Shown here: positions 555-21,507 of the stretch, in pieces | Layout of the letters: each line of letters begins with the position of its first letter | Numbering within the stretch: position 1 is the stretch's first letter | Assembly: GCA_003152415.1 (NCBI GenBank) | Contig: PMAD01000209.1 | Span: 34,179 to 97,268, forward strand | DNA length: 63,090 bases | Direction of reading: 5' to 3' | From: Acidobacterium sp. | Lineage (GTDB): Bacteria > Acidobacteriota > Terriglobia > Terriglobales > Acidobacteriaceae | The notes under the pieces: model-generated | What the model was told of the DNA's origin: nothing | What the model saw: the letters and a program-made list of their open reading frames with translations, nothing else | Databases searched by the model: none | Program-made: the position numbers and the translations under genes

Positions 555-1328
555 TTACGCTACGTGAGCTCCCGCGGTCTGGAAGGACTGGAGAATGCGC
601 GCATGATAGCTGCGGCTCATCGGAACCCTTTGTCCGTTGACCAAAAGAACGGCAAAGTCGCCGCGGGATTCTGTGCGCACCTCTTTGACGTACTGCAGAT
701 TGACGATCGCGGAACGGTGAACCCGCGCGAACATTGCAGGATCGAGCTTCTCCTCGAGATCGGCCATGGTCTGGCGGAGCAGGTGCGTTTCGGTCCTGGT
801 GCAGATGCGCACGTAGTTTTCTTCAGCACCGATCCAGCGAATATCGGTCACGGGAAGGAAGAGAATCCGACCACGCGATTTGAAGACCATGCGGGTGGTG
901 TACTTGCCGCCATTGTGGCTCTGGCCTTCGCGCCGGCCACCAGGCTTTCCTGCCGCGCCGATCTCTGCGATGGCCCGTGTGACCGCGGTGCGAAGCCTCT
1001 CCGCCGTAAAGGGCTTGAGCAGGTAGTCGACGGCATTCATTTCGAAGGCACGGAGCGCATAGGTATCCCAGGCCGTGGTGAAAATGACGCGGGGCGTGGC
1101 AGGACCGGCCAGGGCGTTGAGCTGATCGAGCACAGTGAATCCGTCCAAAACGGGCATACAAATGTCGAGGAAGAGCAGTTGCGGCGCAGTCTCGCGTACC
1201 ACATCGAAAACTTCACAGGCTGAGGCGCCCTCTCCCACCACTTCCACTCCTGGGATTTCGCCAAGCATCTGCCGTAACTTCCGCCGCGCGAGCGGCTCGT
1301 CATCGGCCAGGACCGTCCGGAGTACCAT
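555..1328 (-). CDS. LytR/AlgR-family response regulator (REC + LytTR DNA-binding domain)
   Basis: MVLRTVLADDEPLARRKL...FLDICMPVLDG (receiver domain) followed by a LytTR domain (RILFLPVTDIRWIGAEENYVRI...VHRSAIVNL). Start chosen at the ATG at 1328, preceded by AAGGAGG. The ORF track extends to 1403. Confidence 0.85.
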   Translation of the reverse strand: MVLRTVLADDEPLARRKLRQMLGEIPGVEVVGEGASACEVFDVVRETAPQLLFLDICMPVLDGFTVLDQLNALAGPATPRVIFTTAWDTYALRAFEMNAVDYLLKPFTAERLRTAVTRAIAEIGAAGKPGGRREGQSHNGGKYTTRMVFKSRGRILFLPVTDIRWIGAEENYVRICTRTETHLLRQTMADLEEKLDPAMFARVHRSAIVNLQYVKEVRTESRGDFAVLLVNGQRVPMSRSYHARILQSFQTAGAHVA

Positions 1329-1862
1329 CGTGCCTCCTTGATTCCAGGCGCGAGCGCTGATGCATCGTTCCTTCAGCACTGCTGGGTCAATGTTGCTTTC
1401 CAACAGGAGAGCCCGTTCATGGCCAAACTGCTAGCGAGGGCAACCTGCTGAAAACAGGTTGGCTGGCGTAGCGGTCGCGCGGGCTGCGGCAACGGCGGGT
1501 GCCCAAAACCGGACTCAAGCGTCCGAGTTCGAACACCTGCGCCCGGTCGCGCGCGCCCTTTTCATCGCTTCCGAATAAAGGGACCGATTCGAAACTTGTG
1601 ACGAACGGTGCAGCCTGGGGACCAGCCGGAGATCGAGCCACTCCAATGGCCAGCAAGAAGGATGAATGCTCCTGAACAGGGGGAACCGAACCGCTATCCT
1701 GCACGTACCGTCCGTTGTCTCAGGAGTATGCCTCCAGTACTGGCCGTCGTGGTTCCCGCGGAACGCGACCACGCCGGACAGCTGACTACGGTACCGCCCT
1801 CTTAAGACCTGGCCGCATCGAGACCGGGTTTCACCACAGCAGGAGGCTGACGAGCGAACGAA

Positions 1863-3002
1863 GTGACTCTACCCCCAGATAGACACGAACCCGAGCAACC
1901 GTTCTTCATGCATCCGCTTATCCTCATCAGCGCTTCGGTGCTGGTCGGGATCTTGTTCGCTCTGCAGGAATGGATGAACGCGCACCGCTGGGGTTACAGG
2001 ATCAGCGTGCTGTTTCTGATCGAAATGTGGGGGATGCAGTTTCTTATCTGGGGCGCAATTTGCTGGCTGATGTGGCGATTCCTGCGGCCCTTCATCGTAC
2101 AGGCGAACGTCGTATCGCTGATTACACGCGCGCTGCCTCTCAGCATCGCGACCAGCATTCTGGAAGAGATGATCTGGGTCATGTTTTTTCCAAGGGTGCC
2201 CGTGGACCGACCGCCCATGGATTATTGGCACCGGCTGAGTTTCCAACTGGGTGCGGAATTCGTCGACAGCATGGCGATTTTCTGGTGCGCTTTTCTGTTC
2301 CTGCGCGGGGTGGCCTACTACCAGCAGTTTCGGGAGAAGGAAACGACGGCGGCGCAGCTCCAGGTGCAGCTGGTACAGGCGAGGCTGGCCGCGCTGCGCA
2401 TGCAGCTCAATCCGCATTTCCTCTTCAACGCGATGAACAGCATCTCGAGCCTGATGCGCACCGACGTCAACGCGGCGGACCAGATGCTGGAACAACTGAG
2501 CAGCCTGCTGCGTATGACGCTCGAACGGGGCGAGGTGCAGCTGGTTCCTCTCCGCAAAGAGATGGAGTTCATCGAGATTTACATGGCCATGCAGCAGCAG
2601 CGCTACGCGGGAAGAGTACAGCAGAGGGTTCTGGTTGAGCCGGAATTGCACGACGCTCTGGTTCCGGCACTGATCCTGCAGCCGATCGTCGAGAACGCCT
2701 ATGTCCACGGCGTTGCCCGGTGTGCCGGAGAGGGAGAGCTGTCGATCGATATCCGCAGGGACGGTAAACGAATGAGGATGAGCGTCGTCAATAGTGGCAA
2801 CGGCCTCGATCTGGAACGCGGAGAATTGCCGCGGCGGGGGGTCGGACTGGCGAACGTACGAGATCGCCTTCGGCTGCATTACGGCGAGCGCGGGTCGCTC
2901 TCGGTTCGTGAGATGGGTTCAGGCCGCGTGAATGTGACGATCGCGCTGCCATTACAGCTGGAACAAAACGGCACGCAAGAAGCTGCACGATTTGACGTAT
3001 GA
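1863..3002 (+). CDS. LytS/YehU-type sensor histidine kinase (membrane)
   Basis: N-terminal TM helices, His_kinase motif LNPHFLFNAMNSISSLM, and a C-terminal HATPase region (ILQPIVENAYVHG...GVGLANVRDRL). The GTG start is uncertain; an alternative ATG lies at 1908. Confidence 0.85.
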   Translation: MTLPPDRHEPEQPFFMHPLILISASVLVGILFALQEWMNAHRWGYRISVLFLIEMWGMQFLIWGAICWLMWRFLRPFIVQANVVSLITRALPLSIATSILEEMIWVMFFPRVPVDRPPMDYWHRLSFQLGAEFVDSMAIFWCAFLFLRGVAYYQQFREKETTAAQLQVQLVQARLAALRMQLNPHFLFNAMNSISSLMRTDVNAADQMLEQLSSLLRMTLERGEVQLVPLRKEMEFIEIYMAMQQQRYAGRVQQRVLVEPELHDALVPALILQPIVENAYVHGVARCAGEGELSIDIRRDGKRMRMSVVNSGNGLDLERGELPRRGVGLANVRDRLRLHYGERGSLSVREMGSGRVNVTIALPLQLEQNGTQEAARFDV

Positions 3003-3742
3003 CGATCCAGGTTGCATTGGCCGATGACGAGGTACTGGCGCGGCAAAAGCTGCGCATCTTCCTGCGCGACGAACCCGATTGCGAGGTGGTGGGGGAGTGT
3101 GGGACGGCGGCGGAGACGATCGAACTGGTGCGCGCCGCCCGGCCGGATGTGGTTTTTCTGGACATCCACCTGCCCGACATGGACGGTTTTGACGTCGTCG
3201 ATGCGCTTTCGTCTCATACGGAGCTGATCATGCCGCGCATCGTTTTCACTACCGCATACGACCAGTACGCCCTGCGCGCCTTCGAGGTCCACGCTGTGGA
3301 CTATTTGCTCAAGCCGTTTACACCGGAACGGCTGCGATCGGCTCTGGAGCGGATTCGCCAGCACGCCAATGGCGGTCCCCCTAATGGGGTGGAGGATGGC
3401 GAGTCGAGCCGCTATGCGACGCGCATTGTCTTCAAATCGAAGGGGCGCATTTTGTTTTTGCCGGTTTCAGAGATCCGCTGGATTGCCGCTGAGGAGAATT
3501 ATGTGCGCATCTCCACGGCGGATGAGACGCACCTGCTGCGCGAGACGATGGCCCACATGGAAGAGCGGCTGGACCCACGGGCATTTCTCCGCGTGCATCG
3601 TTCCTCCATCGTGAACCTGCAATTTGTGAAGGAAGTCAGGATGGATGCGGAGGGGGAGGCTGCAGTGATGCTGATTAACGGTCAGAAGGTTTCTATGAGC
3701 CGTAGTTACCGATCACGGATTCAGCGGCTGGTCCATCAATAG
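2999..3742 (+). CDS. LytR/AlgR-family response regulator (REC + LytTR)
   Basis: ATGA overlap with the kinase stop. ALADDEVLARQKL...FLDIHLPDMDG followed by LytTR (RILFLPVSEIRWIAAEENYVRI...VHRSSIVNL). Close paralogue of the gene at 555-1328. Confidence 0.9.
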   Translation: MTIQVALADDEVLARQKLRIFLRDEPDCEVVGECGTAAETIELVRAARPDVVFLDIHLPDMDGFDVVDALSSHTELIMPRIVFTTAYDQYALRAFEVHAVDYLLKPFTPERLRSALERIRQHANGGPPNGVEDGESSRYATRIVFKSKGRILFLPVSEIRWIAAEENYVRISTADETHLLRETMAHMEERLDPRAFLRVHRSSIVNLQFVKEVRMDAEGEAAVMLINGQKVSMSRSYRSRIQRLVHQ

Positions 3743-4064: not shown

Positions 4065-4562
4065 ATGATGAACACCGAGTGCACAACCGACAGGAAGTTG
4101 ACGAGGTACTTTGGCGGTCCCGATCAGGAGTTTGGGGACGCATTAAGGATCGCGATCCGATTTACCATTCCTACTGACGCTGCTCGCATTTTTCAGGCTC
4201 TAACAAAGCCTGAATATCTCGAGAGCTGGATTTCTCTCCCCGGCGACGATGCGGAGAGTTATCTGGTTGCATGGCGACAGCAGAACGGCTACCGGCTGGA
4301 TCATTACCGGCGCGGCCGGCGAGATCTGATCATCCGCGGAACCTATCGCATCTGCCGGCGCCGCAAGATGCTTTTCACATGGACGATGACCGGCGACTGG
4401 ACGACGCCCGAGAGCCTCGTCTACGTCCGGCTGAATGGAGACTTCCGCAACACGATAGTGGAGCTTCACCACCGAGGGATTTCTTCGGCCTCGGACTGGT
4501 CGTGGCAGCAGGAAATGTGGCAGAACTCCATTGATCGGCTCGTCCGGCTGTTTCTCAGCTAA
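4065..4562 (+). CDS. SRPBCC/AHSA1-like domain protein
   Basis: 165 aa. Pattern ...IFQALTKPEYLESW...VELHHRG...W..S.DRLVRL resembles the Aha1-like/SRPBCC fold. SD-like GGGAGGGAAGGG lies upstream. Confidence 0.55.
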   Translation: MMNTECTTDRKLTRYFGGPDQEFGDALRIAIRFTIPTDAARIFQALTKPEYLESWISLPGDDAESYLVAWRQQNGYRLDHYRRGRRDLIIRGTYRICRRRKMLFTWTMTGDWTTPESLVYVRLNGDFRNTIVELHHRGISSASDWSWQQEMWQNSIDRLVRLFLS

Positions 4563-4699: not shown

Positions 4700-4728
4700 T
4701 TGATCTTGAGAGAATTAGTTGTTATGGT
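4700..4728 (+). promoter_or_regulatory. Candidate sigma70-like promoter of the corrinoid operon
   Basis: TTGATC (4700-4705), 17-nt spacer, TATGGT (4723-4728), inside the only AT-rich patch of this intergenic region, about 140 nt upstream of the ATG at 4870. Confidence 0.35.
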
Positions 4729-4869
4729 AAACAATATCTCCGCTCCATGAGCGGAGCCTTGCAGTGGGCGGCGCTTTCGCATTCCGGGCGGCGCAGCTGT
4801 GAGCCCTCAGACAAGTTCTCATCTGGTCAAAGGTTGTGCGTGGGCTCAGGGTGACCGGGAGGAAAAAAT

Positions 4870-5943
4870 ATGCTGCCAGAACAGTGGGAGACGTTTAAGC
4901 AAGCGGCGCGCCGCGAAAAACTGGACAAGATTCCGATGGCACTGATCGTCGACAGCCCATGGATTCCCGGGTACCTCGGAATCAAGCATCTGGATTATTT
5001 CCTCGATCCGGAGCTGTGGTTTCAATCGAACCTGAAGATCATGCGCGAGTTTCCGGACATCATCTTCATCCCTTCGTGGTGGATGGAGTACGGGATGGCG
5101 GCGGAGCCCTCGGTGCTGGGGGCGAAGATCAAATTCTGGCAGGATAACACCCCGAGTGAATACCACACCCTCTACCACCTCGAGGATATGGATCAGTTTC
5201 CCGATTACGAAGTGGAGGCCGATGGTTTTGCCGGCCTGACGCTGCATCGGATCGGGATGGCGCGGCAGCGCATCCTCGATGCGGGTTACATCCTGCCCAT
5301 GGTCACATCGCGCGGGCCGCTGTGCACGGCGGGATTTGTCCGCGGCACCACAAATTTCATGATCGACCTAGTGGAGAACCCCGGGGGCGCGCACAAGCTG
5401 ATCGACCTGTGCACGCGGGTAATCATCGACTGGCTGAAGGCGCAGCAAAAAGTCATGGGCGACACAGTCGAGAGCATCTTCATCCTCGACGACATCGTTG
5501 GGTTCATCAACGAAGAGCATTACCTGGAGTTTGCGCACCCTTATTTGAAGCGCATCTGCGATGCGTTTCCGAAGGACTGGGTGAAGGTGTACCACAACGA
5601 TGCGGAGGTCGATGCGTGTCTCGACCATCTGCCGGATACGGGATTCAACGTGCTGAACTGGGGCAAGCAGCGGCACATCATCGAGGTGAAACGGCGTGTG
5701 GGCGACAGGATGTGCCTGATGGGCAACGTCAACCCGCTGGAAATTGGCGTGCGCGGCACACCGGAGGAAGTGAAGGATGAGACGCTCGAGGTGCTGGAGG
5801 GATCGGGCGGCGAGGGAATCATTCTCTCGGTCGGCGGCGGCACCAGCCCGGGGATGCCACGCGAGAATATCGTGGCCATGCTGGAGGCTCTTGAGGAATT
5901 CAATGCGAAGCGTAGTACGAGCGCGATTGCAAGCGCTCGCTAA
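4870..5943 (+). CDS. URO-D-fold (MtaA/CmuA/MtvB-like) corrinoid-dependent methyltransferase
   Basis: 357 aa. Overall resemblance to uroporphyrinogen-decarboxylase-family methyltransferases (C-terminal ...GGEGIILSVGGGTSPGMPRENI...). Sits directly upstream of a corrinoid protein. SD GGGAGG. Confidence 0.75.
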   Translation: MLPEQWETFKQAARREKLDKIPMALIVDSPWIPGYLGIKHLDYFLDPELWFQSNLKIMREFPDIIFIPSWWMEYGMAAEPSVLGAKIKFWQDNTPSEYHTLYHLEDMDQFPDYEVEADGFAGLTLHRIGMARQRILDAGYILPMVTSRGPLCTAGFVRGTTNFMIDLVENPGGAHKLIDLCTRVIIDWLKAQQKVMGDTVESIFILDDIVGFINEEHYLEFAHPYLKRICDAFPKDWVKVYHNDAEVDACLDHLPDTGFNVLNWGKQRHIIEVKRRVGDRMCLMGNVNPLEIGVRGTPEEVKDETLEVLEGSGGEGIILSVGGGTSPGMPRENIVAMLEALEEFNAKRSTSAIASAR

Positions 5944-5955
5944 GGAAGAGGATCG

Positions 5956-6597
5956 ATGCCCGATTATGCCCTGATGAACCAGCACCTGTACGAGGGGAAC
6001 GCCGGCGAGGTGGAGCGGATGACGAAGGAAGCGCTCGCCGAAGGGCGGACCGTTCAGGAAGTGCTGAATGAGGGTTTGATCGCGGGCATGAGCGTGGTGG
6101 GCGAGGACTTCAAGCACAACGTGCTGTACGTGCCGGAAGTGCTGATCGCGGCGCGGGCGATGAAGGCGGGCATGGCGGTGCTGAAGCCGCTGCTGACCTC
6201 GAAGGACAGCACCACGAAGCCCAAAGGTATTTTGCTGATGGGCACGGTGCGCGGCGACCTGCACGACATCGGCAAGAACCTGGTGGGGATGATGGCGGAG
6301 GGCGCGGGTTTTGAGCTGCACGACATCGGCGTGGATCAGAGTGTGGATAAATTCATGGCAGCGGCCGAGAAGTGCAAGCCGACCATCATCGGCATGAGCG
6401 CGCTGCTGACGACGACCATGATGTACATGAAGACGGTCATCGATGGGTTTAACGCGGCGGGGCTGACGCATATCAAGATGGCGGTGGGCGGAGCGCCGAT
6501 CAGCCAGATGTTCGCCGACGAGATCGGCGCCGATGGGTACGGAGCGAACGCTTCCGCCGCGGTGGATTTGTTTTTGCGGCTGGCGGCACAGGTGTAA
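5956..6597 (+). CDS. Corrinoid (cobalamin-binding) protein, MtaC/MtbC/MetH-B12-domain type
   Basis: B12-binding_2 cap followed by a Rossmann domain with DxHxxG (GDLHDIGKN), SxL (MSALL) and GG (VGGAP) motifs. Confidence 0.9.
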   Translation: MPDYALMNQHLYEGNAGEVERMTKEALAEGRTVQEVLNEGLIAGMSVVGEDFKHNVLYVPEVLIAARAMKAGMAVLKPLLTSKDSTTKPKGILLMGTVRGDLHDIGKNLVGMMAEGAGFELHDIGVDQSVDKFMAAAEKCKPTIIGMSALLTTTMMYMKTVIDGFNAAGLTHIKMAVGGAPISQMFADEIGADGYGANASAAVDLFLRLAAQV

Positions 6598-6601
6598 CAA
6601 A

Positions 6602-6856
6602 GTGGCCACCTACAGGATTCTCTACTGGCGGGAAATCCCGACGCAGATTAAGGCCGAGGACGATGCGGATGACGTCACGCTGATGCTGGACGAGAGATTC
6701 ATGCAACAGATCGATATCCTCGCCGCCAAACGAGGACTGCAAGCCGCCGACGACTACCTGGCGCAGTGGAAATGGAGCGAGGAAGAGGAACGCGAGGGTT
6801 CGGCGCGCGAGGTTGCCGAAGCACTGAAAGCGGAACTCGAAGCGAAGGGCTGGTAG
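6602..6856 (+). CDS. Small acidic conserved hypothetical protein (84 aa) between the corrinoid protein and its activator
   Basis: GTG start 4 nt after the corrinoid-protein stop. VATYRILYWREIPTQIKAEDD... Coding-like composition. I recall small proteins of this kind next to RACo-type genes but cannot verify that here. Confidence 0.5.
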   Translation: MATYRILYWREIPTQIKAEDDADDVTLMLDERFMQQIDILAAKRGLQAADDYLAQWKWSEEEEREGSAREVAEALKAELEAKGW

Positions 6857-6868
6857 GGCGCCACGGAA

Positions 6869-8524
6869 ATGGCCGTCACTCTCACCATCAACGGGGAATC
6901 CATCGAAGCGAGGAGCGGGCTGTCGCTGTTCGAGCACGCCGAAAGCCTGGGCATCGATGTTCCCACGTCGTGCCGCAAGCAGGGCAAGTGCAGAGAGTGC
7001 ATGGTGGAAGTCGTGGAAGGGATGAGCGCGCTTTCGGCGATGACCGAGCCGGAGCGGCATCTGAAGGGAAAGTTTCGCCTATCGTGCCAGACATTTGTGA
7101 CCGGCGCCAGCGGGCAGGTTCGCTGCCATACCATGCGGCGGGGGCGCATGCGCATCGAGCGCCACGCATTCGGTCTGCCCGTCGGCCCCCCGCTCCAACT
7201 CGATCCTGCAGTGACACGCGACGGTGGCCGCATCCTTATAGATGGAGCTGAGGTGGAACGCTCTACCGGGCCGATCCATGGGCTCGCTATGGACCTTGGG
7301 ACGACGACGATCGTTCTGCGCCTGCTCGACCTCGAGAGCGGCGAGCTGATTGCGGACACTTCGTTTGAGAATCCGCAGCGTTTCGGCGGCTCGGAAGTGA
7401 TGTCGCGCATCGCTTACGACACGGATCACCCGGGAAGACTGTTGCTGCGCACGCTGGCCGGCTACCTGACCCACGCGATCGAGAAGTTCCCTGTCGATCC
7501 AAAGACCATTTACGAGATGGTAGTGGTGGGCAATTCCACCATGCGAGATCTTTTTTTTCGCCAGAGCGTGTATTCGATTGGGCAAACGCCATACCGATCG
7601 ATCACGGAAATTGAACTGGCCGAGGGCAAGCGCACGACGACCAGCCTCGTTCAGACCGGGCTGCGCAGCCTGCTGCCGATTCATCCCAAAGCGCGGGTGT
7701 ATGGCGCGCCGATCATCAGCGGCCACGTGGGCGCCGACGCGGCGGCCGCGATGCTGGCCGTGGATCTTGCCCATGAGGAGCGGCTGATCGCCATCATGGA
7801 CATCGGCACGAACACAGAGCTCATAGTCGGCAACAAGCACGACATCGTCGCGGCATCTTGTCCCGCGGGTCCGGCTTTCGAGGGCGGAGCGATCACTTGC
7901 GGTATGCCGGCTCTGGACGGGGCGATCGAAGAAGTGGCGATCGCCGACGATGGGACCTTCCGTCTCGGCGTGATCGGCGATGTGCCGCCGGAAGGCCTCT
8001 GCGGTTCCGGGTTGGTGGACGTGCTGAGCGAACTGCTGCGCACCGGCCGCATGAACGATAAAGGCCGCTTTGAGGACGGCGTCTCGCGTGTGACGCTATA
8101 CCAAGGGCAAGGGTGCGGCGAAGACCAGGGCATTTTTCTGCTGGAGAGCGATGTCAGCGAGCTGGCGCAGGCCAAGGGCGCCAACGTTGCGGGACTGCAC
8201 GTCGTCTTCTCGAGCTACGGCATCGACTTCGACGACATCGACGTGTTTTATCTGGCCGGAGGGTTCGGGCGGCATCTCAGCGTGGAAGCTTCGAAGCGCA
8301 TTGGACTGGTGCCGAGCCTCGATTCCGCAAAGATCGTGCAAGCCGGCAATACTGCGATCGAAGGCGCGACCATCGCGCTGCTGTCAATGACCAAGCGCCG
8401 GGAGCTGGAAGAGCTGGTGAAGAAGGTGCAGCACTGCCGGCTCGAAACCCATCCGAGCTTCTTCGACTTTTTTGTGGAGGGCTGCCAGTTCAAGCCCGTG
8501 GAGCCGATGCCATGCGCGAGGTAG
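6869..8524 (+). CDS. RACo-type reductive activator of corrinoid enzymes ([2Fe-2S] ferredoxin + ASKHA ATPase, DUF4445-like)
   Basis: N-terminal plant-type ferredoxin cysteines (CRKQGKCRECMVEV...LSCQT). ASKHA phosphate motifs AMDLGTTT and IMDIGTNTE. Confidence 0.85.
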   Translation: MAVTLTINGESIEARSGLSLFEHAESLGIDVPTSCRKQGKCRECMVEVVEGMSALSAMTEPERHLKGKFRLSCQTFVTGASGQVRCHTMRRGRMRIERHAFGLPVGPPLQLDPAVTRDGGRILIDGAEVERSTGPIHGLAMDLGTTTIVLRLLDLESGELIADTSFENPQRFGGSEVMSRIAYDTDHPGRLLLRTLAGYLTHAIEKFPVDPKTIYEMVVVGNSTMRDLFFRQSVYSIGQTPYRSITEIELAEGKRTTTSLVQTGLRSLLPIHPKARVYGAPIISGHVGADAAAAMLAVDLAHEERLIAIMDIGTNTELIVGNKHDIVAASCPAGPAFEGGAITCGMPALDGAIEEVAIADDGTFRLGVIGDVPPEGLCGSGLVDVLSELLRTGRMNDKGRFEDGVSRVTLYQGQGCGEDQGIFLLESDVSELAQAKGANVAGLHVVFSSYGIDFDDIDVFYLAGGFGRHLSVEASKRIGLVPSLDSAKIVQAGNTAIEGATIALLSMTKRRELEELVKKVQHCRLETHPSFFDFFVEGCQFKPVEPMPCAR

Positions 8525-9771
8525 CGGAGAACATCGAGCTGGCCTGCACGCTTCCCGAGCCGAATGTGTTGCCGGGGGAGTACGTGCGTCTGCTCGGTTA
8601 TCCGCGCGGCTTTGCGCTCGAAGGCAGGGCGCTGGACTTGGCGGAGCAGGCGCGGGACTGGTATGCGGAGAACGGACGGCCGTGGTTCTATGCGCGTCAG
8701 GCGGAGACCTTCGAACTCGCCGGCGACTCTATCTATATTGATGGACTGCCATTCGTGAGCAAACGGCTGGAGAGCACGCTGCGGCAAGCAGAAGCGCACA
8801 GCGTGATTCTGGTAGCCGTGGGCGCCGGTCCGGAAGCCGAGGAAGAAGCGCGGCGGCGCTGGGCGGACGAAAAGCCCGACGAATATTTCTTCCTCGAGAT
8901 GTATGCTTCCGCAGTCGTTGAGCATTTGACCACGGCGACCGGGGCGCGACTCTGTGACTGGGCGGAGCAGCATGAGATGGCAGTCCTACCCCACTACAGC
9001 CCCGGGTATCCCGAGTGGGACGTGGCGGAGCAGCCGCGGTTGCTGGAGCTGATGAGGCGGACCCGCAGAGAGCGTTTTCCGTCCTGCGTGGAGGCGCTCG
9101 ACTCCGGCATGCTGCGCCCCAGGAAGACGCTGCTGGCAGTCTTCGGACTGACGCATCACATCGATCACCTGCGCAGGCTCACCGATCTGGTTCCGTGTGA
9201 GAGCTGCTCCTTCGGTCCCTGCCAGTACCGGCGCGCTCCGTACCGGCGGGCTCCGCGCTCGAACACTGAGCAGGTGACGGCGCGGATGATGGTGCTGGAC
9301 GAAGACGCTGAGTACAGTGTGAATCGAAAAGCCCTGAAGCGTTGGGCCGAGGAGCGTCTTTCCATGGACATTCATAAGGATGGCTCGCTCGACGCGGTGT
9401 TTCGCTATGACGGAACGACCTGCACCAACATGGGACGGCCGCTGACGTTTCACTACAACGTGAAGCTGGGCCCGCGATCCGAAGGGTACCCAATACAGGA
9501 GCAGTACTGCGCGCCGGTCCCGGGCGATACCGGCCACACTCACATGTGCCAGTACATCGAAGACCCCACGCGCCTGATGGGAGCCATCGACCGCGAGAAG
9601 CCGCTGCACGGAGAACGGTTAAACACCGTGCTGTCGTGGCGGCGCGAGCTGAGCGGTGCGGGGTGCTTTTGCGAAGCGTCCAGCCGCGATCACAAATGGG
9701 GCCTGGTGTTCGAGACGATTCACTACGCGTTGGTACAAAGAGAGCTGGCGCAGGAAGCTGAGGAACGATGA
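8511..9771 (+). CDS. MetH reactivation (AdoMet-binding) domain-like protein fused to a Cys-rich C-terminal domain of unknown function
   Basis: The ATG at 8511 overlaps the RACo gene by 14 nt. The N-terminal ~200 aa resemble Met_synt_B12 (...LEMYASAVVEHL...LPHYSPGYPEWDV...). The C-terminal ~190 aa have no family I recognise. The ORF-track start at 8113 lies inside the previous gene. Confidence 0.6.
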
Positions 9772-10703
9772 AGAGATTTCTGCAGGATGCGATCCGGGAG
9801 CGGCCGCTGCTGTGCGACGGCGCGATGGGAACGCAGCTGATGATCGCCGGTCTGGAACAGGGTAATTGCGGCGAGGCGTGGAATCTCACGCATCCGGAGC
9901 GAGTGCTTGCGATCCAGCGGCGCTATGCGGAAGCCGGGTCGGAGTGCATACTGACCAACACTTTTGGCGGGTCGCGCATCATGCTCACCCGGCACTCCGA
10001 GGGAGACCACGTGGCCGCCATCAACAAGGCGGGCGTGGAAATCACGCGCCGGGCCTTTGGTAACAAAAACGGTTACGTGATTGGCGACATCGGCCCGTTC
10101 GGCGGCTTGCTGGAGCCTTACGGCGATTTCAGCGAAGCTCAGGTACGCAGCGCTTTCGAGGAACAGGCCACGGCTCTGGTGGAAGGCGGCGCGGACGCCA
10201 TCATTATTGAGACACAGACCTCGCTCGAGGAACTGCTGATCGGGATCCAGGCGGCCCAGCGAGCGGGCGCGCCATGCATTATCGGATCGATGGCCTACGA
10301 CGTTACGCTCGACGGCTCGACCTTCCGCACCATGATGGGGATCGAACCCGAACGGGCGGCCGCCTTCATGGAGGAGCACGGCGCGCACATCGTGGCACTC
10401 AACTGCGGCACCCGCATGGACATGCAGCGCGCGCTGACCGCGGTGGAGCGCTACAAGAGCGCGACCAGTCTCCCGGTGATGGTGCAGCCGAATGCCGGAC
10501 AACCCAGACTGGTGAACATGAAGGTGGTTTACGACGAGACGCCGGATCAGATGGTGCAGGGTCTGATGCCGCTGCTCGAGGCGGGCGCGAATATCGTCGG
10601 CGCCTGCTGCGGCAGTACGCCGGAGCACATCCGCGCGTTCAGAAAAGTCATGGACGAGTTTCTGGAATCGAAGCGAATGGAACTCCAGCGGAGCCCGGCG
10701 TGA
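9768..10703 (+). CDS. Stand-alone homocysteine S-methyltransferase domain protein (MetH N-terminal module-like)
   Basis: ATGA overlap with the previous gene. LLCDGAMGTQL, TNTFG, and Zn-ligand cysteines in LNCGT and GACCGSTPEHI. Confidence 0.85.
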   Translation: MKRFLQDAIRERPLLCDGAMGTQLMIAGLEQGNCGEAWNLTHPERVLAIQRRYAEAGSECILTNTFGGSRIMLTRHSEGDHVAAINKAGVEITRRAFGNKNGYVIGDIGPFGGLLEPYGDFSEAQVRSAFEEQATALVEGGADAIIIETQTSLEELLIGIQAAQRAGAPCIIGSMAYDVTLDGSTFRTMMGIEPERAAAFMEEHGAHIVALNCGTRMDMQRALTAVERYKSATSLPVMVQPNAGQPRLVNMKVVYDETPDQMVQGLMPLLEAGANIVGACCGSTPEHIRAFRKVMDEFLESKRMELQRSPA

Positions 10704-11029
10704 AAGTCAAACTTTGCGAAGTCAACGCGGCGGCCCTGGACAAGCTTCCACAGCACACCGACGACAAGTCCGGCATTGGCGTTCACTACGTCGATGCGTA
10801 CATCAAGCCGATGAACGTGAAGCTGGAAGACGGGACACCTGTCAAGTGCAAGCGGCGCGGCCTGAAAATCGTGCTCTCCGCGGGCGGCAAGAAGGGCGAA
10901 GGCCTGATGCGCCGGCTGGAGGTGAGCGCCGATCCGGTGGTCATGCTGAATGCGGCACTTCAGGAAGCTGCCAGGGCCGCGGGCATCGAACTTGTGGTTG
11001 AGGACGGAACAATTTTCGTTACGATTTGA
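10700..11029 (+). CDS. Hypothetical protein (109 aa), last gene of the corrinoid operon
   Basis: GTG start overlapping the previous stop (GTGA). VKVKLCEVNAAALDKLPQH... No family recognised. Confidence 0.45.
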   Translation: MKVKLCEVNAAALDKLPQHTDDKSGIGVHYVDAYIKPMNVKLEDGTPVKCKRRGLKIVLSAGGKKGEGLMRRLEVSADPVVMLNAALQEAARAAGIELVVEDGTIFVTI

Positions 11030-11425
11030 TTATTGCGCCAGCGAGCATCCCCGCTCGACTCCCCCATTGAGGCCATGCGCCTCTCCCCCCACAGTGACAC
11101 CCGAAGAAACCATCGGCCTGCATTGCGAATACAAATCTGATGGCGCCGGCAAGCAGACAAAGGGCTTCTCAGGTTCCGTATGGCCCACCAGTAACTCCCA
11201 CCAAAGTGACCTAAATTGGGGTTCCGCAGTGCCCTCAGCGAGGCGACCAAAGATTCGTTGACCCGCACCGGATTGCACACTAAGGTACTTCGAAGCATTC
11301 CTCTTTTTGAAAGCGTTGTGCCGGCATTTGCCGGCGCTTCCTCTGCACGCCGGAGGGAAATCTATACACCGCCCGCGAGCTGACGGGCGGCAACACACTA
11401 ATTCCAGTTGCCGAGGGCTCCCGAT

Positions 11426-14400
11426 ATGTCTGCCAATGGTTCTCTGAATTCCAGTCGCTGTTCCACGCGCTTCCGCATCTTCTCCGCTTTCCTGGCCAAC
11501 TGCATTTGGGTCGCACCGCTGTGTCTGGCGCCGGCGACCTCGGCCTTTGCGTCGGACACCTACACGGTGACCGTGAACACGGACGACTACAGCGGCACGC
11601 CGACTACGCTCACCGGGACCGCCTCGCACTGCCCGGCCAACGGGACCGGTTCCAGCTGCTCGCTGCGCGACGCGATTACCGCGGCGCTGGCCGATCCCGG
11701 CAGCACCATCAACTTCTCAGTGAAGGGCACCAACATGCTGAATTTCGTGTTGCCCATTATCACGACCAGCACCAACATCGTGGGCCCGGGCGCGAATGCA
11801 CTGACCATCTCGGGCGGGTATCAGCAGTTCTATGTGTCCGGCACGGCCGCGACGACGGTGACGATTTCCGGGCTGACTCTGGCCAATGCGAACAACACAG
11901 TAGTGGCCACCGGGCTGATGCCGTCTTACGGCGGGGCCATATACAACGTCGGGGCAACGCTGACCGTGGATCACATGGTCTTCGCGAACAACACCACCGG
12001 GCAGCCGTCTCTGGCGGGCGAGGGCGCAGCGATCCTGAACAACAACGGATCGCTGACCGTGAATGACTGCCTCTTTATCGGCAATTATTCCCAGAACACG
12101 ACATCCGACAACGGTCTGGGCGGCGCCATCACCAACATCGGCACACTGAACATCAAAGGCAGCACGTTCGAGGGCAACATTGCGAACGACGGCAGCGCCG
12201 TCTACAGTCTCAGCGGCTTGTCGATCACGGACAGCCTTTTCACGGGGAATTATGCAGCGTTTTCCGGGGCCGTGACCTTCACCAGCGGGACGCTTACCGT
12301 GAAGAACAGCACCTTCGTGGCCAACACGGCGGTATTTGGGCCCAATGACGGCACATCGATCTACAACGACGGCAATCAGGCGCTTTCCCCGCCGACGACG
12401 ATGGCGGTTAGCAACAGCATTTTGGACGTTCCCACGACGGGCGCGGCTTGCGTCACCACGGCCACTCCGAGCGATTGCCCGGTGAACGGCCAAAATGGCA
12501 ACGTCGTTGCGACACTGGCGAATCTGAAACTGGCTTCGCTGGGATACTATGGCGGGCCGACGCCAACCATGCCACCACTGCCCGGAAGCGCGGCGCACTG
12601 CGTCAGCTCGTCATCGAACTTTCCTGGCGCCGACCAGCGTGGCTTTGGAGTGGACATCTCGTGCGGAGCAGGTCTGGCCGATGCCGGATCTGTACAGGCG
12701 AACTATCTGACGGTGAACACCGCCGCGGATGATGCCGGGGCGACCATTACGACTTGCGGAGCGACCTGCACGCTGCGCGACGCGATCAATGCCGCTTTGG
12801 CGGATGGCAACGGCGATATCGACTTTGCTTCCGGCTTGAGCGGCACCATCACTCTGGGCGGATCTCTTCCCAGCATCAGCACGGCGGGCAGCGTCGACAT
12901 TGTGGGCCCGGGAGCCAATCTGCTGTCGGTTTCGGGGGCCCTCACTTATCCAATCTTGAATATCGCTGGAGGGACCGTCGACATCTCCGGGCTGACCCTC
13001 ACCGGCGGGAAAACGACCGCATCCGGTGGTGGCATCGACAACACGGGTGGAACGCTGACCCTCAGCAACAGCGTCGTGAGCAGCAACTCGGCCACATCCA
13101 ACGGCGGCGCCATCAACAACGGCGGCTCGATGCTGGTGAGCAACAGCACATTCGCGGCGAACAAAGCAGCCAGCGGCAGCGCGATCTACAACACAGGCGT
13201 GCTGACGATGACCTACAGCACCGTCGCAGGCAATACCGCCAGCGCGAGCGGAGGAATCTACAACGCCAGCGGCGCCGCATTGAAGGCGGTCAACAGCACC
13301 TTCGCGGGCAATACCGGCACGGGCAGCGGCATCTACAACAGCGGTGCGCTGGCGGTGACGAACAGCATCCTCGATGCCACTACCGAGTGCTCGGGCACAG
13401 GATGCCCGGCAACCGGCAATGGCAACGTCGTCGGGGCTACGAAGCTTGCGGCGCTGGGTTCCTATGGCGGCCCAACGCAGACCGTCCTGCCGCAACCTGG
13501 GAGTTCGGCGATCTGCGGTGGCTCTGCGGCCTTGATTCCGGTGTTCGTGACTACCGACCAGCGCGGATTTGCCAACGAGAACACCACGTATACGGGATAT
13601 TCGGCAACGGCTCCGTGCGTCGATGCCGGCGCGGTGCAGACGAATTACACCTCGGCGCAGTTTGTTGGAGCGCCCTACGTCGCCAACGCGAACACGCCAG
13701 GCACAGCTCCGCCGGTGATCGTATCGGTGATGGAAAACGGCCAGAACATCGGCGGCGTGCCGGTAACGCTGAGCTTCAGCGGAACAGGAACGGCTACTGG
13801 GCTGACCTCAACAACCGCCGGCGGCGCAGGCGCGAGCTTCGCTCTTGTAGTCAACCAACCCAGTGCACCGACAGACACGCTTTCGGTAAGCATTCCGGTC
13901 GTAGGCGCGGATACGCTGACCGCCGGTCCGGCTCAGCTCACGGTTGTACCCCAGGGCGCGGCCACTTCGATCACACCCGCCGCCGCTTCGGCAACAACGC
14001 TGAGTACCAGCGTGAGCTTGTCGGCGACGGTTCTGAGCGGCGGAAAGCCGGTGACCGCGGGGCAGGTCAGTTTCACGGTCGTGTACTCGTCGGGCGCCGT
14101 ACCCACGGTGACGGGGACGGTGAGCAGCGGTGGAGTTGCCACGGTGCCGTACCCGCTGCCTCAGCATCTGGCGGCGAACACGTATTCCGTCAGCATCAGC
14201 TACTCGGACATCGGAGGAGCGTTTGCGCCGAGTTCCACCACGGGACAGATGGCGATCAGCAAGGTGACGCCGACGGTGTCGACGTGGCCGGCAGCCAGCG
14301 CCATCACGGTTGGGCAGACTCTGGCCTCGTCAACGCTGACGGGGGGCGTGGCATCCGTGCCCGGCGGTTTTGCCTTCACCACGCCGACAACGGTTCCACC

Positions 14401-15301
14401 TTTGGGGTCTTCTTCGCAGAGCGTGACCTTTACGCCGACTGACATCACGGATTACACCACGGTGGTGGGATCCGTCAGCGTCACGGCGATCGGCCCTCCC
14501 ACCCCGATCATTCCTTACATCGAGGTGAACGGCGGAGCCTGGCAGACAACCGCCAGCGTCACGGCGCAATTCAGCGACTCGGTGAACCTCGGTCCGCAAC
14601 CGCTCACCGGCGGTTCATGGAGCTGGACCGGTCCCAATGGTTACACTTCCACGTCGCGGCAGATCAACGGCATCCCGCTGACTTTGCCCACCAACATCTA
14701 CGTGGCGACTTACACCAATCCGGCTGGCGCCAAGAGCACGGAGACATTCACGATCACTGTGGCTCCGACCGCCATTACTCCTTATCTCGAGGTGAACGGA
14801 GGAGCCTGGCAGACGACCACCAGCGCCACCGTGCAACTCACCGATCTGGTGAATCTGGGCCCGCAGCCGCTGACTGGCGGTTCATGGAGCTGGACCGGGC
14901 CAGGCGGGTTCACTTCCACCTCGCGGCAGATCAACAGCATTCCGCTGACTTCGGCCACGAACGTTTTCGTGGCTACGTACACCAATCCGGCTGGCGTGAC
15001 GAGCACGCAGACCTTTACGATCGGCATCGCTCCCACCCCGATCACTCCTTATATCCAGGTGGGAAATGAAGCGTGGGTCTCGGGCAACACTATCATCGTG
15101 TTCCTGGGGAACTCGGTGAACCTGGGTCCGCAACCACTCACCGGCGGTTCATGGAGCTGGATCGGTCCCAGTGGTTACACGTCAACCTCGCGGCAGATCA
15201 ACAATATTCCGCTGAGTCTGGGCTTCGATGTCTACGTGGTTACGTACACGAATGCCGTCGGAATCAAGAGCACGGAGACTTTCACGATCATTGCTCTCTA
15301 G
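11426..15301 (+). CDS. Large secreted protein: two parallel beta-helix modules (PMP/'choice-of-anchor Q'-like), Ig-like region and 3 C-terminal repeats
   Basis: Signal peptide (FLANCIWVAPLCLAPATSAFA). GGAIYN/GGAITN/GGGIDN/GGAINN repeats. Duplicated C(S/T)LRDAI(T/N)AALAD ... YGGPT(P/Q)T..P.PGS.A...DQRGF module ends. Ig-like stretch. The TTG at 11408 is an alternative start. Confidence 0.8.
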   Translation: MSANGSLNSSRCSTRFRIFSAFLANCIWVAPLCLAPATSAFASDTYTVTVNTDDYSGTPTTLTGTASHCPANGTGSSCSLRDAITAALADPGSTINFSVKGTNMLNFVLPIITTSTNIVGPGANALTISGGYQQFYVSGTAATTVTISGLTLANANNTVVATGLMPSYGGAIYNVGATLTVDHMVFANNTTGQPSLAGEGAAILNNNGSLTVNDCLFIGNYSQNTTSDNGLGGAITNIGTLNIKGSTFEGNIANDGSAVYSLSGLSITDSLFTGNYAAFSGAVTFTSGTLTVKNSTFVANTAVFGPNDGTSIYNDGNQALSPPTTMAVSNSILDVPTTGAACVTTATPSDCPVNGQNGNVVATLANLKLASLGYYGGPTPTMPPLPGSAAHCVSSSSNFPGADQRGFGVDISCGAGLADAGSVQANYLTVNTAADDAGATITTCGATCTLRDAINAALADGNGDIDFASGLSGTITLGGSLPSISTAGSVDIVGPGANLLSVSGALTYPILNIAGGTVDISGLTLTGGKTTASGGGIDNTGGTLTLSNSVVSSNSATSNGGAINNGGSMLVSNSTFAANKAASGSAIYNTGVLTMTYSTVAGNTASASGGIYNASGAALKAVNSTFAGNTGTGSGIYNSGALAVTNSILDATTECSGTGCPATGNGNVVGATKLAALGSYGGPTQTVLPQPGSSAICGGSAALIPVFVTTDQRGFANENTTYTGYSATAPCVDAGAVQTNYTSAQFVGAPYVANANTPGTAPPVIVSVMENGQNIGGVPVTLSFSGTGTATGLTSTTAGGAGASFALVVNQPSAPTDTLSVSIPVVGADTLTAGPAQLTVVPQGAATSITPAAASATTLSTSVSLSATVLSGGKPVTAGQVSFTVVYSSGAVPTVTGTVSSGGVATVPYPLPQHLAANTYSVSISYSDIGGAFAPSSTTGQMAISKVTPTVSTWPAASAITVGQTLASSTLTGGVASVPGGFAFTTPTTVPPLGSSSQSVTFTPTDITDYTTVVGSVSVTAIGPPTPIIPYIEVNGGAWQTTASVTAQFSDSVNLGPQPLTGGSWSWTGPNGYTSTSRQINGIPLTLPTNIYVATYTNPAGAKSTETFTITVAPTAITPYLEVNGGAWQTTTSATVQLTDLVNLGPQPLTGGSWSWTGPGGFTSTSRQINSIPLTSATNVFVATYTNPAGVTSTQTFTIGIAPTPITPYIQVGNEAWVSGNTIIVFLGNSVNLGPQPLTGGSWSWIGPSGYTSTSRQINNIPLSLGFDVYVVTYTNAVGIKSTETFTIIAL
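14498..15298 (+). repeat. Three in-frame tandem 267-bp (89-aa) units forming the C-terminus of the large secreted protein
   Basis: Units at 14498-14764, 14765-15031 and 15032-15298. Conserved core LGPQPLTGGSWSW(T/I)GP.G(Y/F)TSTSRQIN.IPL...TYTN..G..ST(E/Q)TFTI. Confidence 0.9.
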
Positions 15302-18700: not shown

Positions 18701-19259
18701 TGCCCGTAAAGTCGTTGCCGGGCGCGGTACTCGATCCTCCGGAAACGGTCAGCAAACCCGTGATCTGCCGGCTGGTGGAGTTCAGCGGCATTTCCGTAAT
18801 GTCCTTCTCGTCGACGGTCTGCTTGAACGAGGGGTCCTCGGTCTGCAGGGCCAGACCTTCCGAATGGACCTGCACCTCAGTGCTCGCCGCCCCTACCTGA
18901 AGACTGGCATTGACAGCGATGCTGCTGCCGACTTCGAGCACGATATTCGTTTGCTCGTAAGTCTTGAACCCGCTGGCAACGACACGAAGTGTATAGGTGC
19001 CCGTAGGCAGGCCGGGGAAGGCATAGACTCCGGCGCCGTCGCTCCTGTTGTGGTGCTGTACCTGCGTTGCTGTATCGGTGATCGTGATCGCCGCATTCTG
19101 GACGACGGCTCCGGAGGCATCCAGTACGGTGCCCTGTACGTTGGCGGTTCCGGCGATCTGCGCCTTGCCCTGGGTGGCGAACAGCACCAGCGTCGCGAGA
19201 CAAAGGGCGCCCAACCAGCGCCCGAGGATTGCCATTGGGTTGGAACGTGTGCTCCTCAT
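15735..19259 (-). CDS. TonB-dependent receptor-like outer-membrane protein with N-terminal CarboxypepD_reg domain
   Basis: Signal peptide; NVQGTVLDASGAVVQNAAITITDTATQ...GVYAFPGLPTGTYTL (carboxypeptidase-regulatory-like fold). About 1170 aa barrel ending ...GSVKLIF. Start at the ATG at 19259, preceded by GGAGG. Confidence 0.85.
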   Translation of the reverse strand: MRSTRSNPMAILGRWLGALCLATLVLFATQGKAQIAGTANVQGTVLDASGAVVQNAAITITDTATQVQHHNRSDGAGVYAFPGLPTGTYTLRVVASGFKTYEQTNIVLEVGSSIAVNASLQVGAASTEVQVHSEGLALQTEDPSFKQTVDEKDITEMPLNSTSRQITGLLTVSGGSSTAPGNDFTGSKYSYQTISISIAGGNGNTTLWRLDGGDNQDYMANGNLPFPFPDAVSQFSVESTVLGAGDGEHTGGYVNAVTRSGTNTYHGTAFEFIRNNYLDATNFYSVSPDTLHQNEYGGTFGGRIIRDKLFAFAGYQHLKADQSQSSTEAFVPTAANLAGDFSVTDGTTCESSGKFVQLKDPLTGATLPGDKYASPPAFIAQSLALDKYLPAINPAVDTNNCGLVSYSIPSQTSDNEFVTRVDYTMNSKNSLFGRYFIDGYQAPAFFSPSNILITTQSGNIERTQSFTLGWIDSFTPNTVNAAHATVLRRVDNRGYNAGDINAAKLGVNISQPIPNGLQITEGKFTIGGGTNSVAHFNDNTLAIDDDVTMVRGKHQIIWGGEWVQNELNISNGYESNGTFTFNGEYSGSGPNGGSVIGDQSLDFLWGTLSAFQQSKQEQNALRGPIPSLYGQDTFHATPRLTLVAGLRWGPNFMPVDYFNRGSVFNYSDFLDNTISTVYPNAPAGILFYGDSGVPRGFTQNSPWQFSPNLGVSWDPFGTGKTVIRAGAELAYDKPNFFTGQRTNQNPPFATAISNTQTSATGPLSFGAPWSVGSITTSPFPQPIIPTPSEAVFYAQSQYIVMPSQFHPAYTIQWTLSVQHDFSHGWQAQVDYIGNRTVHDPMGTPLSPAVFIPGVWGAGGTGCAGIVTTGPAAVKPGAAGTNCSTTKNENSRFALTIANPAQGNQIIGGGAGSVTVNDVGYASYNGMVATLQHRLSATFSLLANYTWSKCLDLADGQGDIAAGLYQNPNNPRGDWGPCGFDYRDIENFVIVARSNFNDLPRAERLLIDNWEFAPLVHITTGAAVNVTSGVDNSLTDEAQDRPNLVAGTSPYAEVKFSRASGESNREYLNPAAFAQVTAPCGASTNGCAEVGTFGDVSRNAFRTPPYFQFDAQVSRLFPVHERLNLDLRLEAFNVLNHPDFGSPTASLSSSTFGQISSTAGGNAARVFQGSVKLIF

Positions 19260-19734
19260 AGAAGCCTCCAAAGAACTGCCGATTGCGTTTTCTGTGTGAA
19301 GAGGTCTGACCTGTGCTCAAAAACCGCACCAGTATCGTGGACCCAGAATGGACCTGTCAAGAGGCAACCGCGGGCCGATCCTTCGAGGGGATTGACGGAA
19401 CGGGTGCGGTGGGCGATTGTCGGCGGCCCAGCGCGGCCCGCGACCCTACGCCAGGGCCTCTTGTTTCTTGGCTTTGCCGATTCATCCTTTGTTCGTGGAA
19501 CAACTCAAAAGCGGGCAGGGGCGCCGCCAGGTGTCAACCCGTCTGCAATCGTTTCCAGTCCTCGCGGGAACTCCTTCCTTGTCCGCAATCGTGTCACCAA
19601 TACGCCGTCCGCCTCATCCCCTGGCCCTCATCGAAGAGGTGCCCGCGCGGCTGGTTGGTCAGACCACGCATCGAATCGATATGCGGATTTGAGGGGCGAC
19701 TGCGGGCAATGGATATCCAGCCGCCGCTATCCGG

Positions 19735-21378: not shown

Positions 21379-21507
21379 AGCGGCACGATCCTTGCAGAAA
21401 TAATGTCCCGGTTGCAACCTGGTTCTGAGCTCCAGTGGTATGACCACTGAGCCGGTTCCAGCGTATCATTAGGCTTCGCAATCCGATCTGCTCGCCGGTG
21501 AGGAAAC

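Follow-up and report, generated by a model that had tools for sequence, protein, structure and literature searches.

The stretch of DNA analysed here, referred to as the window, comprises 63,090 nucleotides of contig PMAD01000209.1 from Acidobacterium sp. (assembly GCA_003152415.1), and contains in 4870-11029 a compact operon of seven co-directional, rightwards-transcribed genes, g1 to g7, which appear to code for a corrinoid-dependent methyl-transfer system (Table 1). The first four genes are separated by gaps of 12, 4 and 12 nt, and the remaining junctions are overlaps of 13 (g4/g5), 4 and 4 nt. A preliminary description of the region, made by reading the sequence without database searches, had listed seven genes on this strand encoding, in order, a URO-D-fold methyltransferase, a corrinoid protein with a DxHxxG motif, an 84-aa acidic protein, a RACo-type activator, a protein resembling the reactivation module of MetH, a stand-alone homocysteine S-methyltransferase with its zinc cysteines, and an unassigned 109-aa protein. 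The genes are all present, and the domain matches agree with these products, the fifth needing the qualification given below; the gaps and the two 4-nt overlaps were likewise correct, and the overlap reported as 14 nt is in fact 13 nt.

Table 1. Genes and other features of the window, numbered from its first nucleotide.
Feature	Position	Strand	Description
g1	4870-5943	+	357 aa; Pfam URO-D 3e-41
g2	5956-6597	+	213 aa; B12-binding_2 (PF02607) and B12-binding (PF02310), cap and Rossmann domains
g3	6602-6856	+	GTG start; 84 aa, acidic; PF13769 Virulence_fact 1.6e-16
g4	6869-8524	+	551 aa; Fer2 (PF00111), Raco_middle (PF17651), RACo_C_ter (PF14574)
g5	8512-9771	+	419 aa; no Pfam match; two-domain
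g6	9768-10703	+	311 aa; S-methyl_trans (PF02574) 7e-61
g7	10700-11029	+	GTG start; 109 aa; no Pfam or PDB match
Operator-like imperfect palindrome TTAGTTGTTATGGTAAACAATATC	4715..4738	+	Upstream of g1; overlaps the -10 hexamer of a promoter-like site
Sigma-70-like promoter match	4706-4735		Upstream of g1
Hairpin CTCCGCTCCATGAGCGGAG	4738-4756		Just after the palindrome
LytTR-type response regulator	555-1403	-	Upstream of the operon
Membrane protein	1863-3002		Putative histidine kinase; upstream of the operon
LytTR-type response regulator	2999-3742	+	Upstream of the operon
AHSA1/SRPBCC-like protein	4065-4562		
Repetitive protein	11408-15301	+	1297 aa; Thr/Ser/Gly-rich; directly 3' of g7; no Pfam match at E <= 0.001
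Polysaccharide-utilisation stretch	15735-35672		
EutB, ethanolamine ammonia-lyase large subunit	59833-61221	-	PF06751, 2e-219
Pectinesterase	61328-62419		

A scan with g5 over one genome per GTDB species gave 153 loci encoding a g5 relative, of which the best 80 were analysed; tblastn searches of g1-g7 against these 80 are the basis of the gene-order and identity figures given here. The order g1-g7 is identical wherever the contig is long enough, and because nearly all 80 loci carry the genes in this order the arrangement is not due to chance. The loci are nearly all from metagenome-assembled genomes (MAGs) of peat, palsa and soil bacteria, belonging to the Acidobacteriaceae, Terracidiphilus, Bryobacterales, Vicinamibacterales, Solibacteraceae and Korobacteraceae. 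Conservation is highest for g1 (80-98% identity among the loci, and 77-98% for its orthologues across phyla) and lowest for g5 (53-95%). The g1 gene is translationally linked to the corrinoid protein gene in 65 or more loci, and g6 is present in 78 of the 80, missing only at a contig end and in the locus L074 discussed below; the homocysteine methyltransferase is thus co-conserved with the corrinoid genes in relatives. The flanks are not conserved: when the flanking open reading frames of the 80 loci were clustered, the most widespread neighbour was common to only about 14, which makes the cassette a self-contained unit, and no conserved neighbourhood naming the methyl donor was found.

The g1 product matches the NCBIfam model for MtaA/CmuA (TIGR01463) with 101 bits (cutoff 235) and that for hemE with 55 bits (cutoff 303). 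In an alignment to uroporphyrinogen decarboxylase (UROD; 6w2o) the RQAGR motif of that enzyme is absent from g1, with I-V-D-S-P in its place, and together with the low hemE score this upholds the earlier view that g1 has the URO-D fold and is not HemE. When g1 is aligned with MtaA (4ay7), its residues H242-N-D244 and G322-G-G324, both invariant in 13 orthologues, stand where MtaA has H-I-C and G-C-G, which we take to be the zinc ligands of that enzyme. An assignment to the MtaA/MtbA/MtsA thiol methyltransferases was rejected on these replacements and on the TIGR01463 score. By its signatures, g1 is a distinct URO-D subfamily, neither HemE nor zinc-dependent MtaA-type. Its top PDB match is CdmB, the chloromethane:corrinoid methyltransferase I (MT I) of Acetobacterium, followed by URODs and MtaA at similarly weak E-values; the relationship to CdmB is distant, with E about 1e-11 and a match confined to the C-terminal half. 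CdmB is an authentic MT I and likewise contains no metal (PMC13222342). From these features and the gene associations described below, g1 is most likely a donor-specific methyl:corrinoid methyltransferase, that is, an MT I.

The corrinoid protein g2 carries D101-x-H103-x-x-G, as read from its sequence, and scores 185 bits against the NCBIfam model MtgC, 175 against pyl_corrinoid and 141 against MetH. The zinc cysteines of g6 are C213 (in LNCG) and C280/C281 (in GACCG), and its scores are 239 bits against the YitJ N-terminal domain, 212 against BHMT and 144 against MetH. We read g6 as the methyl-acceptor module, a putative methyl-corrinoid:homocysteine methyltransferase and one of two interchangeable acceptor modules. 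A Pfam scan of all seven proteins gave no Pterin_bind (PF00809) match at E <= 0.1, and for this operon the proposal that a URO-D-fold protein occupies the place of the pterin-binding module therefore holds. The accompanying description of the operon as MetH split into separate genes is apt as a functional analogy and fails as a statement of descent: since g2 scores best against MtgC and other methylotroph-type corrinoid proteins, and g6 against the YitJ and BHMT models, the operon corresponds in function to a MetH without its pterin module, is assembled from members of sister families, and did not arise by recent fragmentation of MetH.

The roles of g1 and g6 are illuminated by related clusters in which the acceptor genes are exchanged. 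In L074, an unclassified MAG, genes for RACo, g5, g7, orthologues of g1 (80% identical) and g2 (81%) and g3 are followed by methylenetetrahydrofolate reductase (MTHFR, with DUF5981), Pterin_bind and amidohydrolase genes. In L098/L099, from a Verrucomicrobiae MAG, a g1 orthologue (77%) and a corrinoid protein (80%) fused to a PF13769 domain are likewise accompanied by MTHFR (with DUF5981), Pterin_bind and an amidohydrolase, with RACo (69%), g5 (50%) and g7 (63%) encoded on the other strand. No S-methyl_trans gene was found within 10 kb in either L074 or L098/L099. Because Pterin_bind co-occurs with g1 in these clusters, g1 is not the folate module, and the pairing of its orthologues with Pterin_bind and MTHFR speaks for its earlier placement on the donor side. 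A parallel exchange surrounds a second URO-D type, whose L081 and L082 members share 66% identity with each other and only 23-25% with g1: it occurs with S-methyl_trans in L081, where it is fused to the corrinoid protein, and with MTHFR, Pterin_bind and an amidohydrolase in L082. The fusion shows that in this family of clusters the corrinoid protein is what URO-D-fold proteins work on. One further cluster has both acceptor blocks, with URO-D, corrinoid protein, MTHFR, Pterin_bind and S-methyl_trans genes in a single operon. The swaps around the two URO-D types define an invariant core–URO-D, corrinoid protein, RACo, g5, g7 and usually PF13769–for which the acceptor is homocysteine, tetrahydrofolate (THF) or both, and it is on this exchange that g1 is read as donor-specific and g6 as interchangeable. 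A single polarity, from donor through URO-D protein and corrinoid protein to acceptor, would account for all three cluster types, by analogy with the logic of the O-demethylase, Cmu and Cdm systems.

Several other genes accompany the related clusters. The amidohydrolase is an Amidohydro_1 protein (L074 16445-17749; L082 4993-6345; L094 3416-4690; L098 11218-12525), 52-58% identical between loci and weakly Xaa-Pro-dipeptidase-like, which is always found with the MTHFR+DUF5981/Pterin_bind block and never with the homocysteine-only cassette. A GHMP kinase gene, whose best models are heptose-7-phosphate kinase and fucokinase, lies beside the second URO-D type in both acceptor settings (L081 861-1901 and L082 787-1812), and from these matches the substrate of the second MT I type may be a methylated sugar. 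A distant cluster (L088 10259-12537) has a split g5 and two URO-D proteins, one with a C-terminal thioredoxin-like extension, and a gene for a CobW-family GTPase adjoins that of its corrinoid protein.

The remaining genes, g3, g4, g5 and g7, appear to be concerned with activation. The g4 product has an N-terminal [2Fe-2S] ferredoxin domain, a middle domain and a C-terminal ASKHA ATPase, which is the RACo/RamA-type domain set, and scores 297 bits against AcsV and 139 against RamA in NCBIfam, both under the cutoffs; by its architecture it is a RACo/RamA-type ATP-dependent reductive activase. The likeness of g5 to the reactivation module of MetH, noted in the preliminary description, stands at the level of predicted fold and was undetected by every sequence search (Pfam, NCBIfam, phmmer, and a 21-sequence family profile against the PDB). 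An AlphaFold2 model of g5, built with a 42-sequence alignment, has a pLDDT of 88.9, and with this predicted model Foldseek matches residues ~1-215 to 1j6r (E 2e-9, TM score 0.86 on the target, root-mean-square deviation 2.8 A), which is TM0269, the stand-alone MetH activation domain of T. maritima; the next ranks are occupied by 18 further MetH reactivation-domain entries from E. coli, Thermus and human. An hhalign comparison with E. coli MetH 897-1227 is not significant (E 0.49) and places P164-G165-Y166 of g5 on P1137-G1138-Y1139 of the RxxxGY motif. Residues 1-215 are thus predicted to have the fold of the MetH activation domain that binds S-adenosylmethionine (AdoMet, or SAM), and may themselves bind AdoMet.

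The second domain of g5 is preceded by a linker with the motif C229-x2-C232-x4-C237 and spans about 160 residues (260-419), with four more invariant cysteines (C304, C346, C385 and C387). All seven cysteines are retained throughout 42 homologues, even at identities as low as 30%, and this pattern points to a possible metal or Fe-S site in the Cys-rich domain. Foldseek found no significant structural neighbour for it in the PDB; weak NTF2-like matches (probability 0.72 or less over about 57 columns) were discounted as noise. The g7 product has an AlphaFold2 model with a pLDDT of 71, for which Foldseek gives nothing below E 0.08, and g3 has no sequence or fold match in the PDB. The GTG starts of g3 and g7 are backed by the aligned N-termini of their homologues.

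Gene associations draw these proteins together. The g5 gene is always 3' of RACo, and the two are fused in P0180 (948 aa); in L088-L090 g5 is split into proteins of 240 and 146 aa, and it is also present in the folate-type clusters. The g7 gene always accompanies g5 and RACo, in homocysteine-type and folate-type clusters alike. Besides its fusion to the corrinoid protein in the Verrucomicrobiae cluster, the PF13769 family is represented by a g3-type gene directly upstream of RACo in L086, and we read g3 as a probable accessory of the corrinoid protein and the activase. The suggestion that g4 and g5 are two redundant reactivation devices does not survive these observations, since the constant position of g5 after RACo, the fusion and the occurrence in folate-acceptor clusters indicate one composite module that is not specific to methionine synthesis. 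Judged by these associations, RACo, g5, g7 and usually g3 are a single conserved activation module. Both of the families without Pfam matches are large, with 952 clusters at 50% identity for g5 and at least 7944 clusters at 90% identity for g7. In the literature searched there is no description of the gene set, or of g5, g7 or PF13769.

On balance, we favour the interpretation that the operon is a three-component corrinoid methyltransferase system that transfers a methyl group from a non-folate donor to homocysteine, giving methionine; we infer both the direction of methyl flow and methionine as the physiological product from the genes present. In this system g1 would transfer the methyl group of a specific non-folate donor (X-CH3) to the Co(I) corrinoid of g2, and the zinc-dependent g6 would pass it from CH3-Co(III)-g2 to homocysteine. 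When the cofactor is oxidised to Co(II), the composite activation module would restore Co(I), with g4 using ATP and its own [2Fe-2S] cluster for the reduction and g5, g7 and g3 working with it. The MetH-activation-like domain of g5 may dock the corrinoid protein, possibly trapping Co(I) with AdoMet, and its Cys-rich domain may hold the metal or Fe-S cluster. This interpretation is based on the domain identities, the absence of a pterin domain from the operon, the lack in g1 of both the HemE signature and the zinc signature of MtaA, the N-terminal fold of the g5 model, the conservation of the cassette, the acceptor swap around g1, g2, g4, g5 and g7, and the gene fusions. The last (URO-D::corrinoid protein in L081, RACo::g5 in P0180 and corrinoid protein::Virulence_fact in L098) are of the Rosetta-stone kind and suggest that the partners function together. 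A precedent by analogy is the Ruegeria corrinoid protein that is shared by a non-folate donor and a BHMT-like homocysteine methyltransferase (PMC12478193).

Three observations weigh against this interpretation. The MetH likeness of the g5 N-terminal domain is one of predicted fold only, with R1134 of the RxxxGY motif not conserved. The cluster with both acceptor blocks makes it plausible that a split MetH dependent on folate can use this same corrinoid protein. Lastly, no SAM, methionine or cobalamin riboswitch ties the operon to methionine regulation: at Rfam gathering thresholds no riboswitch or other known RNA was found upstream of g1, or elsewhere in the window, the sole ZMP/ZTP match having E = 10.

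The folate-dependent alternative overlaps the proposed donor-to-homocysteine relay and does not oppose it outright: g2, g6 and the activation module would be the core of a split MetH, the pterin methyltransferase and MTHFR would be encoded elsewhere, and g1 would be an auxiliary donor input. It is compatible with the dual-acceptor operon, and with Ruegeria and Phaeobacter, whose split MetH genes lie apart and whose corrinoid protein serves glycine betaine demethylation as well as methionine synthesis (PMC12478193, PMC5764234). We nonetheless consider it unlikely, as no homologue of the cluster-type Pterin_bind or MTHFR proteins was found in the 63-kb window (part Pfam-scanned) or within 10 kb on either side of 79 acidobacterial cassettes, and the coupled seven-gene unit in 80 genomes always keeps g1 and never includes a pterin gene; none of the best 120 relatives of the cluster-type pterin protein is named acidobacterial, which is weak evidence. 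A catabolic function, in which the system demethylates a growth substrate for its carbon skeleton and the by-product methionine is recycled through SAM, is quite improbable. The sister clusters with MTHFR and Pterin_bind do look catabolic, being similar to the O-demethylase, Cmu and Cdm systems and having permeases, sugar-type GHMP kinases and FAH-family hydrolases as neighbours, and the carriers of the cassette degrade polysaccharides, with GH28-type genes near it in the window and in L098; however, no catabolic genes are conserved beside the acidobacterial cassette, and stoichiometric methylation of homocysteine needs a large SAM-consuming sink to sustain a catabolic flux.

The direction of transfer could also be reversed, with g1 methylating a compound Y using methyl groups from CH3-THF in the folate-type clusters and, in the Acidobacteriota, from methionine or a sulfonium donor via g6. 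The higher score of g1 against the MtaA/CmuA models than against hemE is consistent with this, and the URO-D-fold proteins MtaA, MtbA and MtsA do work on the acceptor side in methanogens (PMC10418091). Against a reversal, g1 is without the zinc ligands used by acceptor-side thiol methyltransferases, and the donor-side assignment covers all three cluster types with one polarity. Demethylation of methionine to Co(I) by a homocysteine-domain enzyme is moreover thermodynamically unfavourable and, to our knowledge, without precedent, and we regard a reversed flow as very improbable. That g1 is a genuine uroporphyrinogen decarboxylase in a coincidental neighbourhood, as the public annotation of the identical protein would have it, is scarcely credible: UROD structures are among its top PDB matches (E about 1e-10), but the hemE score and the missing substrate-binding RQAGR motif, the translational linkage to the corrinoid gene, and the fusion to a corrinoid domain of the second URO-D type (about 25% identical to g1) all contradict it.

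For the donor of the proposed relay, methyl ethers (aromatic or sugar) and methyl halides are candidates. The absence of zinc ligands from g1 argues against methylthiols. Known methanol:corrinoid methyltransferases are MtaB proteins and not of the URO-D fold, and methylamines are likewise known to use other folds. The link to methanol from pectin that the preliminary description had guessed at is not upheld, as the pectinesterase gene is 50 kb away and the flanks of the cassette are not conserved; neither it nor the pectin/rhamnogalacturonan genes of the window (15.7-35.7 kb) are linked to the cassette in other genomes. Those genes form a polysaccharide-utilisation stretch with a TonB-dependent receptor, two GH28-like proteins, a GH106 rhamnosidase, GH88 and GH3 enzymes, and rhamnose catabolism genes (an aldolase/SDR fusion, an FGGY kinase and RhaT). 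A GH28-like gene also adjoins the Verrucomicrobiae cluster (L098 18357-20018), and we take such sugar-related neighbours, a GntP permease, an FAH-family hydrolase, a GHMP sugar kinase and GH28, as hints only. The window also encodes EutB, which belongs to an adenosylcobalamin-dependent enzyme, so that the organism has at least one further B12 enzyme there. Acidobacteriota of Stordalen Mire are reported to express genes for corrinoid methyltransferases acting on methanol and methoxylated compounds (PMC10805028), and g1 may or may not be one of these.

Upstream of g1 there is a single sigma-70-like promoter match, the -10 hexamer of which is overlapped by the palindrome TTAGTTGTTATGGTAAACAATATC. 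Of 61 upstream regions of orthologous cassettes, 18 contain the right half of the palindrome, ACAATATC, between -84 and -189 relative to the g1 start (expected 0.0036 per 300 nt), and in L047 and L050 there is a perfect 12-3-12 palindrome, GATATTGTTGTA-N3-TACAACAATATC. A hairpin, CTCCGCTCCATGAGCGGAG, lies just after the palindrome, and there is no regulator gene among the cassette genes. The two LytTR-type response regulators, the membrane protein and the AHSA1/SRPBCC-like protein further upstream are not conserved beside the cassette elsewhere. No terminator-like site was found between g7 and the gene for the repetitive protein that follows it. In about 10-14 of the 80 loci, an Acidobacteriaceae minority, a NitT/TauT-type ABC transporter is encoded 3' of the cassette (e.g. 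L005 12706-16115, with two permeases, an ATPase and an NMT1_2 substrate-binding protein, directly downstream).

In public databases, sequences identical to these are annotated as 'uroporphyrinogen decarboxylase' (g1), '5-methyltetrahydrofolate--homocysteine methyltransferase' (g2 and g6), 'virulence factor' (g3) and 'hypothetical protein' (g5), and g7 is without a name; metabolic reconstructions of these MAGs would consequently misread the genes. If the proposed relay is correct, the methionine/SAM cycle of a dominant group of peat and soil bacteria would be fed directly by an environmental methyl donor, the known routes to methionine would gain one that is of the MetH type and independent of folate, and a new sink would exist in carbon-rich soils for methylated plant compounds or methyl halides. 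The RACo/g5/g7/PF13769 module would be a widespread and uncharacterised part of corrinoid reactivation, and the modular swap of acceptors (homocysteine, THF or both) offers direct experimental access to partner choice by corrinoid proteins. A fuller reading joins two parts: that abundant peat and soil Acidobacteriota make methionine straight from an environmental plant-derived donor (a methyl ether of a sugar, uronic acid or aromatic compound, or a methyl halide) by a folate-bypassing B12 relay with a new, highly conserved URO-D-fold family, and that g5, g7 and PF13769 are unrecognised, widespread reactivation factors partnering RACo, with a MetH-like AdoMet domain and a new Cys-rich, possibly Fe-S, domain, perhaps enabling Co(I) chemistry under oxygen. 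We put this conjunction forward tentatively, as it is rather doubtful that both parts hold in full.

Among known systems, MetH (E. coli, and T. maritima TM0268/TM0269) shares with the operon a homocysteine domain with three zinc cysteines (g6), a B12 cap and Rossmann domain with DxHxxG (g2) and, in the predicted model, the activation-domain fold (g5 N-terminal domain against 1j6r). It differs in that the operon is without a pterin domain and its modules are separate genes from sister families, and in that the activation-like domain of g5 escapes PF02965, carries a Cys-rich domain and is always paired with an ATP-dependent RACo.

The split systems of Ruegeria pomeroyi and Phaeobacter inhibens (MtgBCDE) likewise have a separate corrinoid protein and a separate BHMT-like PF02574 homocysteine methyltransferase (PMC12478193, PMC5764234), a RamA/RACo-type ATP-dependent activase replacing or supplementing the MetH activation domain, and a corrinoid protein for methionine synthesis that can be loaded by a non-folate donor. 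In Phaeobacter, the split MetH with its RamA-like activase and DUF1638 has been established genetically (PMC5764234), and in Ruegeria one corrinoid protein serves both glycine-betaine demethylation and methionine synthesis, the latter with the BHMT-like MtgE (PMC12478193). There, however, the donor methyltransferase belongs to the MttB family (PF06253, glycine betaine) and not to the URO-D fold, the pterin methyltransferase MtgD is present and essential whereas it is absent from this operon, the accessory protein is DUF1638 in place of g5, g7 and PF13769, and the genes are scattered rather than gathered in a translationally coupled seven-gene cassette. The PF06253, MtgD-type pterin methyltransferase and DUF1638 families have no Pfam match in g1-g7.

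The three- and four-component O-demethylase and halomethane systems (Odm/Vdm/Mtv, CmuAB and CdmBCA) combine, as the operon would with g1 as its MT I, a URO-D-fold MT I without a metal site, a methylotroph-type corrinoid protein and a RACo-type activase (PMC13222342), with modular exchange of the MT I, and L074, L082 and L098 match their layout of MT I, corrinoid protein, pterin MT II and MTHFR. In contrast, the acceptor enzyme of the cassette is a homocysteine methyltransferase (PF02574), not a pterin-binding MT II or a coenzyme M-type enzyme, and the g5, g7 and g3 accessories are not described in those systems. The mlp clusters of anaerobes have URO-D proteins that keep the zinc ligands, a corrinoid protein and Ram, with no folate methyltransferase (PMC10418091). 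The type 1 mlp clusters described by Kountz and Balskus (PMC10418091) have two or three MtaA-like proteins with zinc ligands, whereas g1 is single-copy and without the zinc cysteines; they occur in obligate anaerobes, mostly Firmicutes, and unlike this cassette have no PF02574 gene. The folate-independent 'core' methionine synthases MesA-D (PMC7857596) are similar in concept, as they methylate homocysteine to methionine without taking the methyl group directly from methyl-THF, several of them via a methyl-corrinoid protein, but are related to MetE, whereas here a PF02574 enzyme of the MetH/BHMT type is accompanied by an activation module and by a putative MT I of its own. The cassette is thus a variant of known corrinoid methyltransferase systems, with an activation module that has not been described before.

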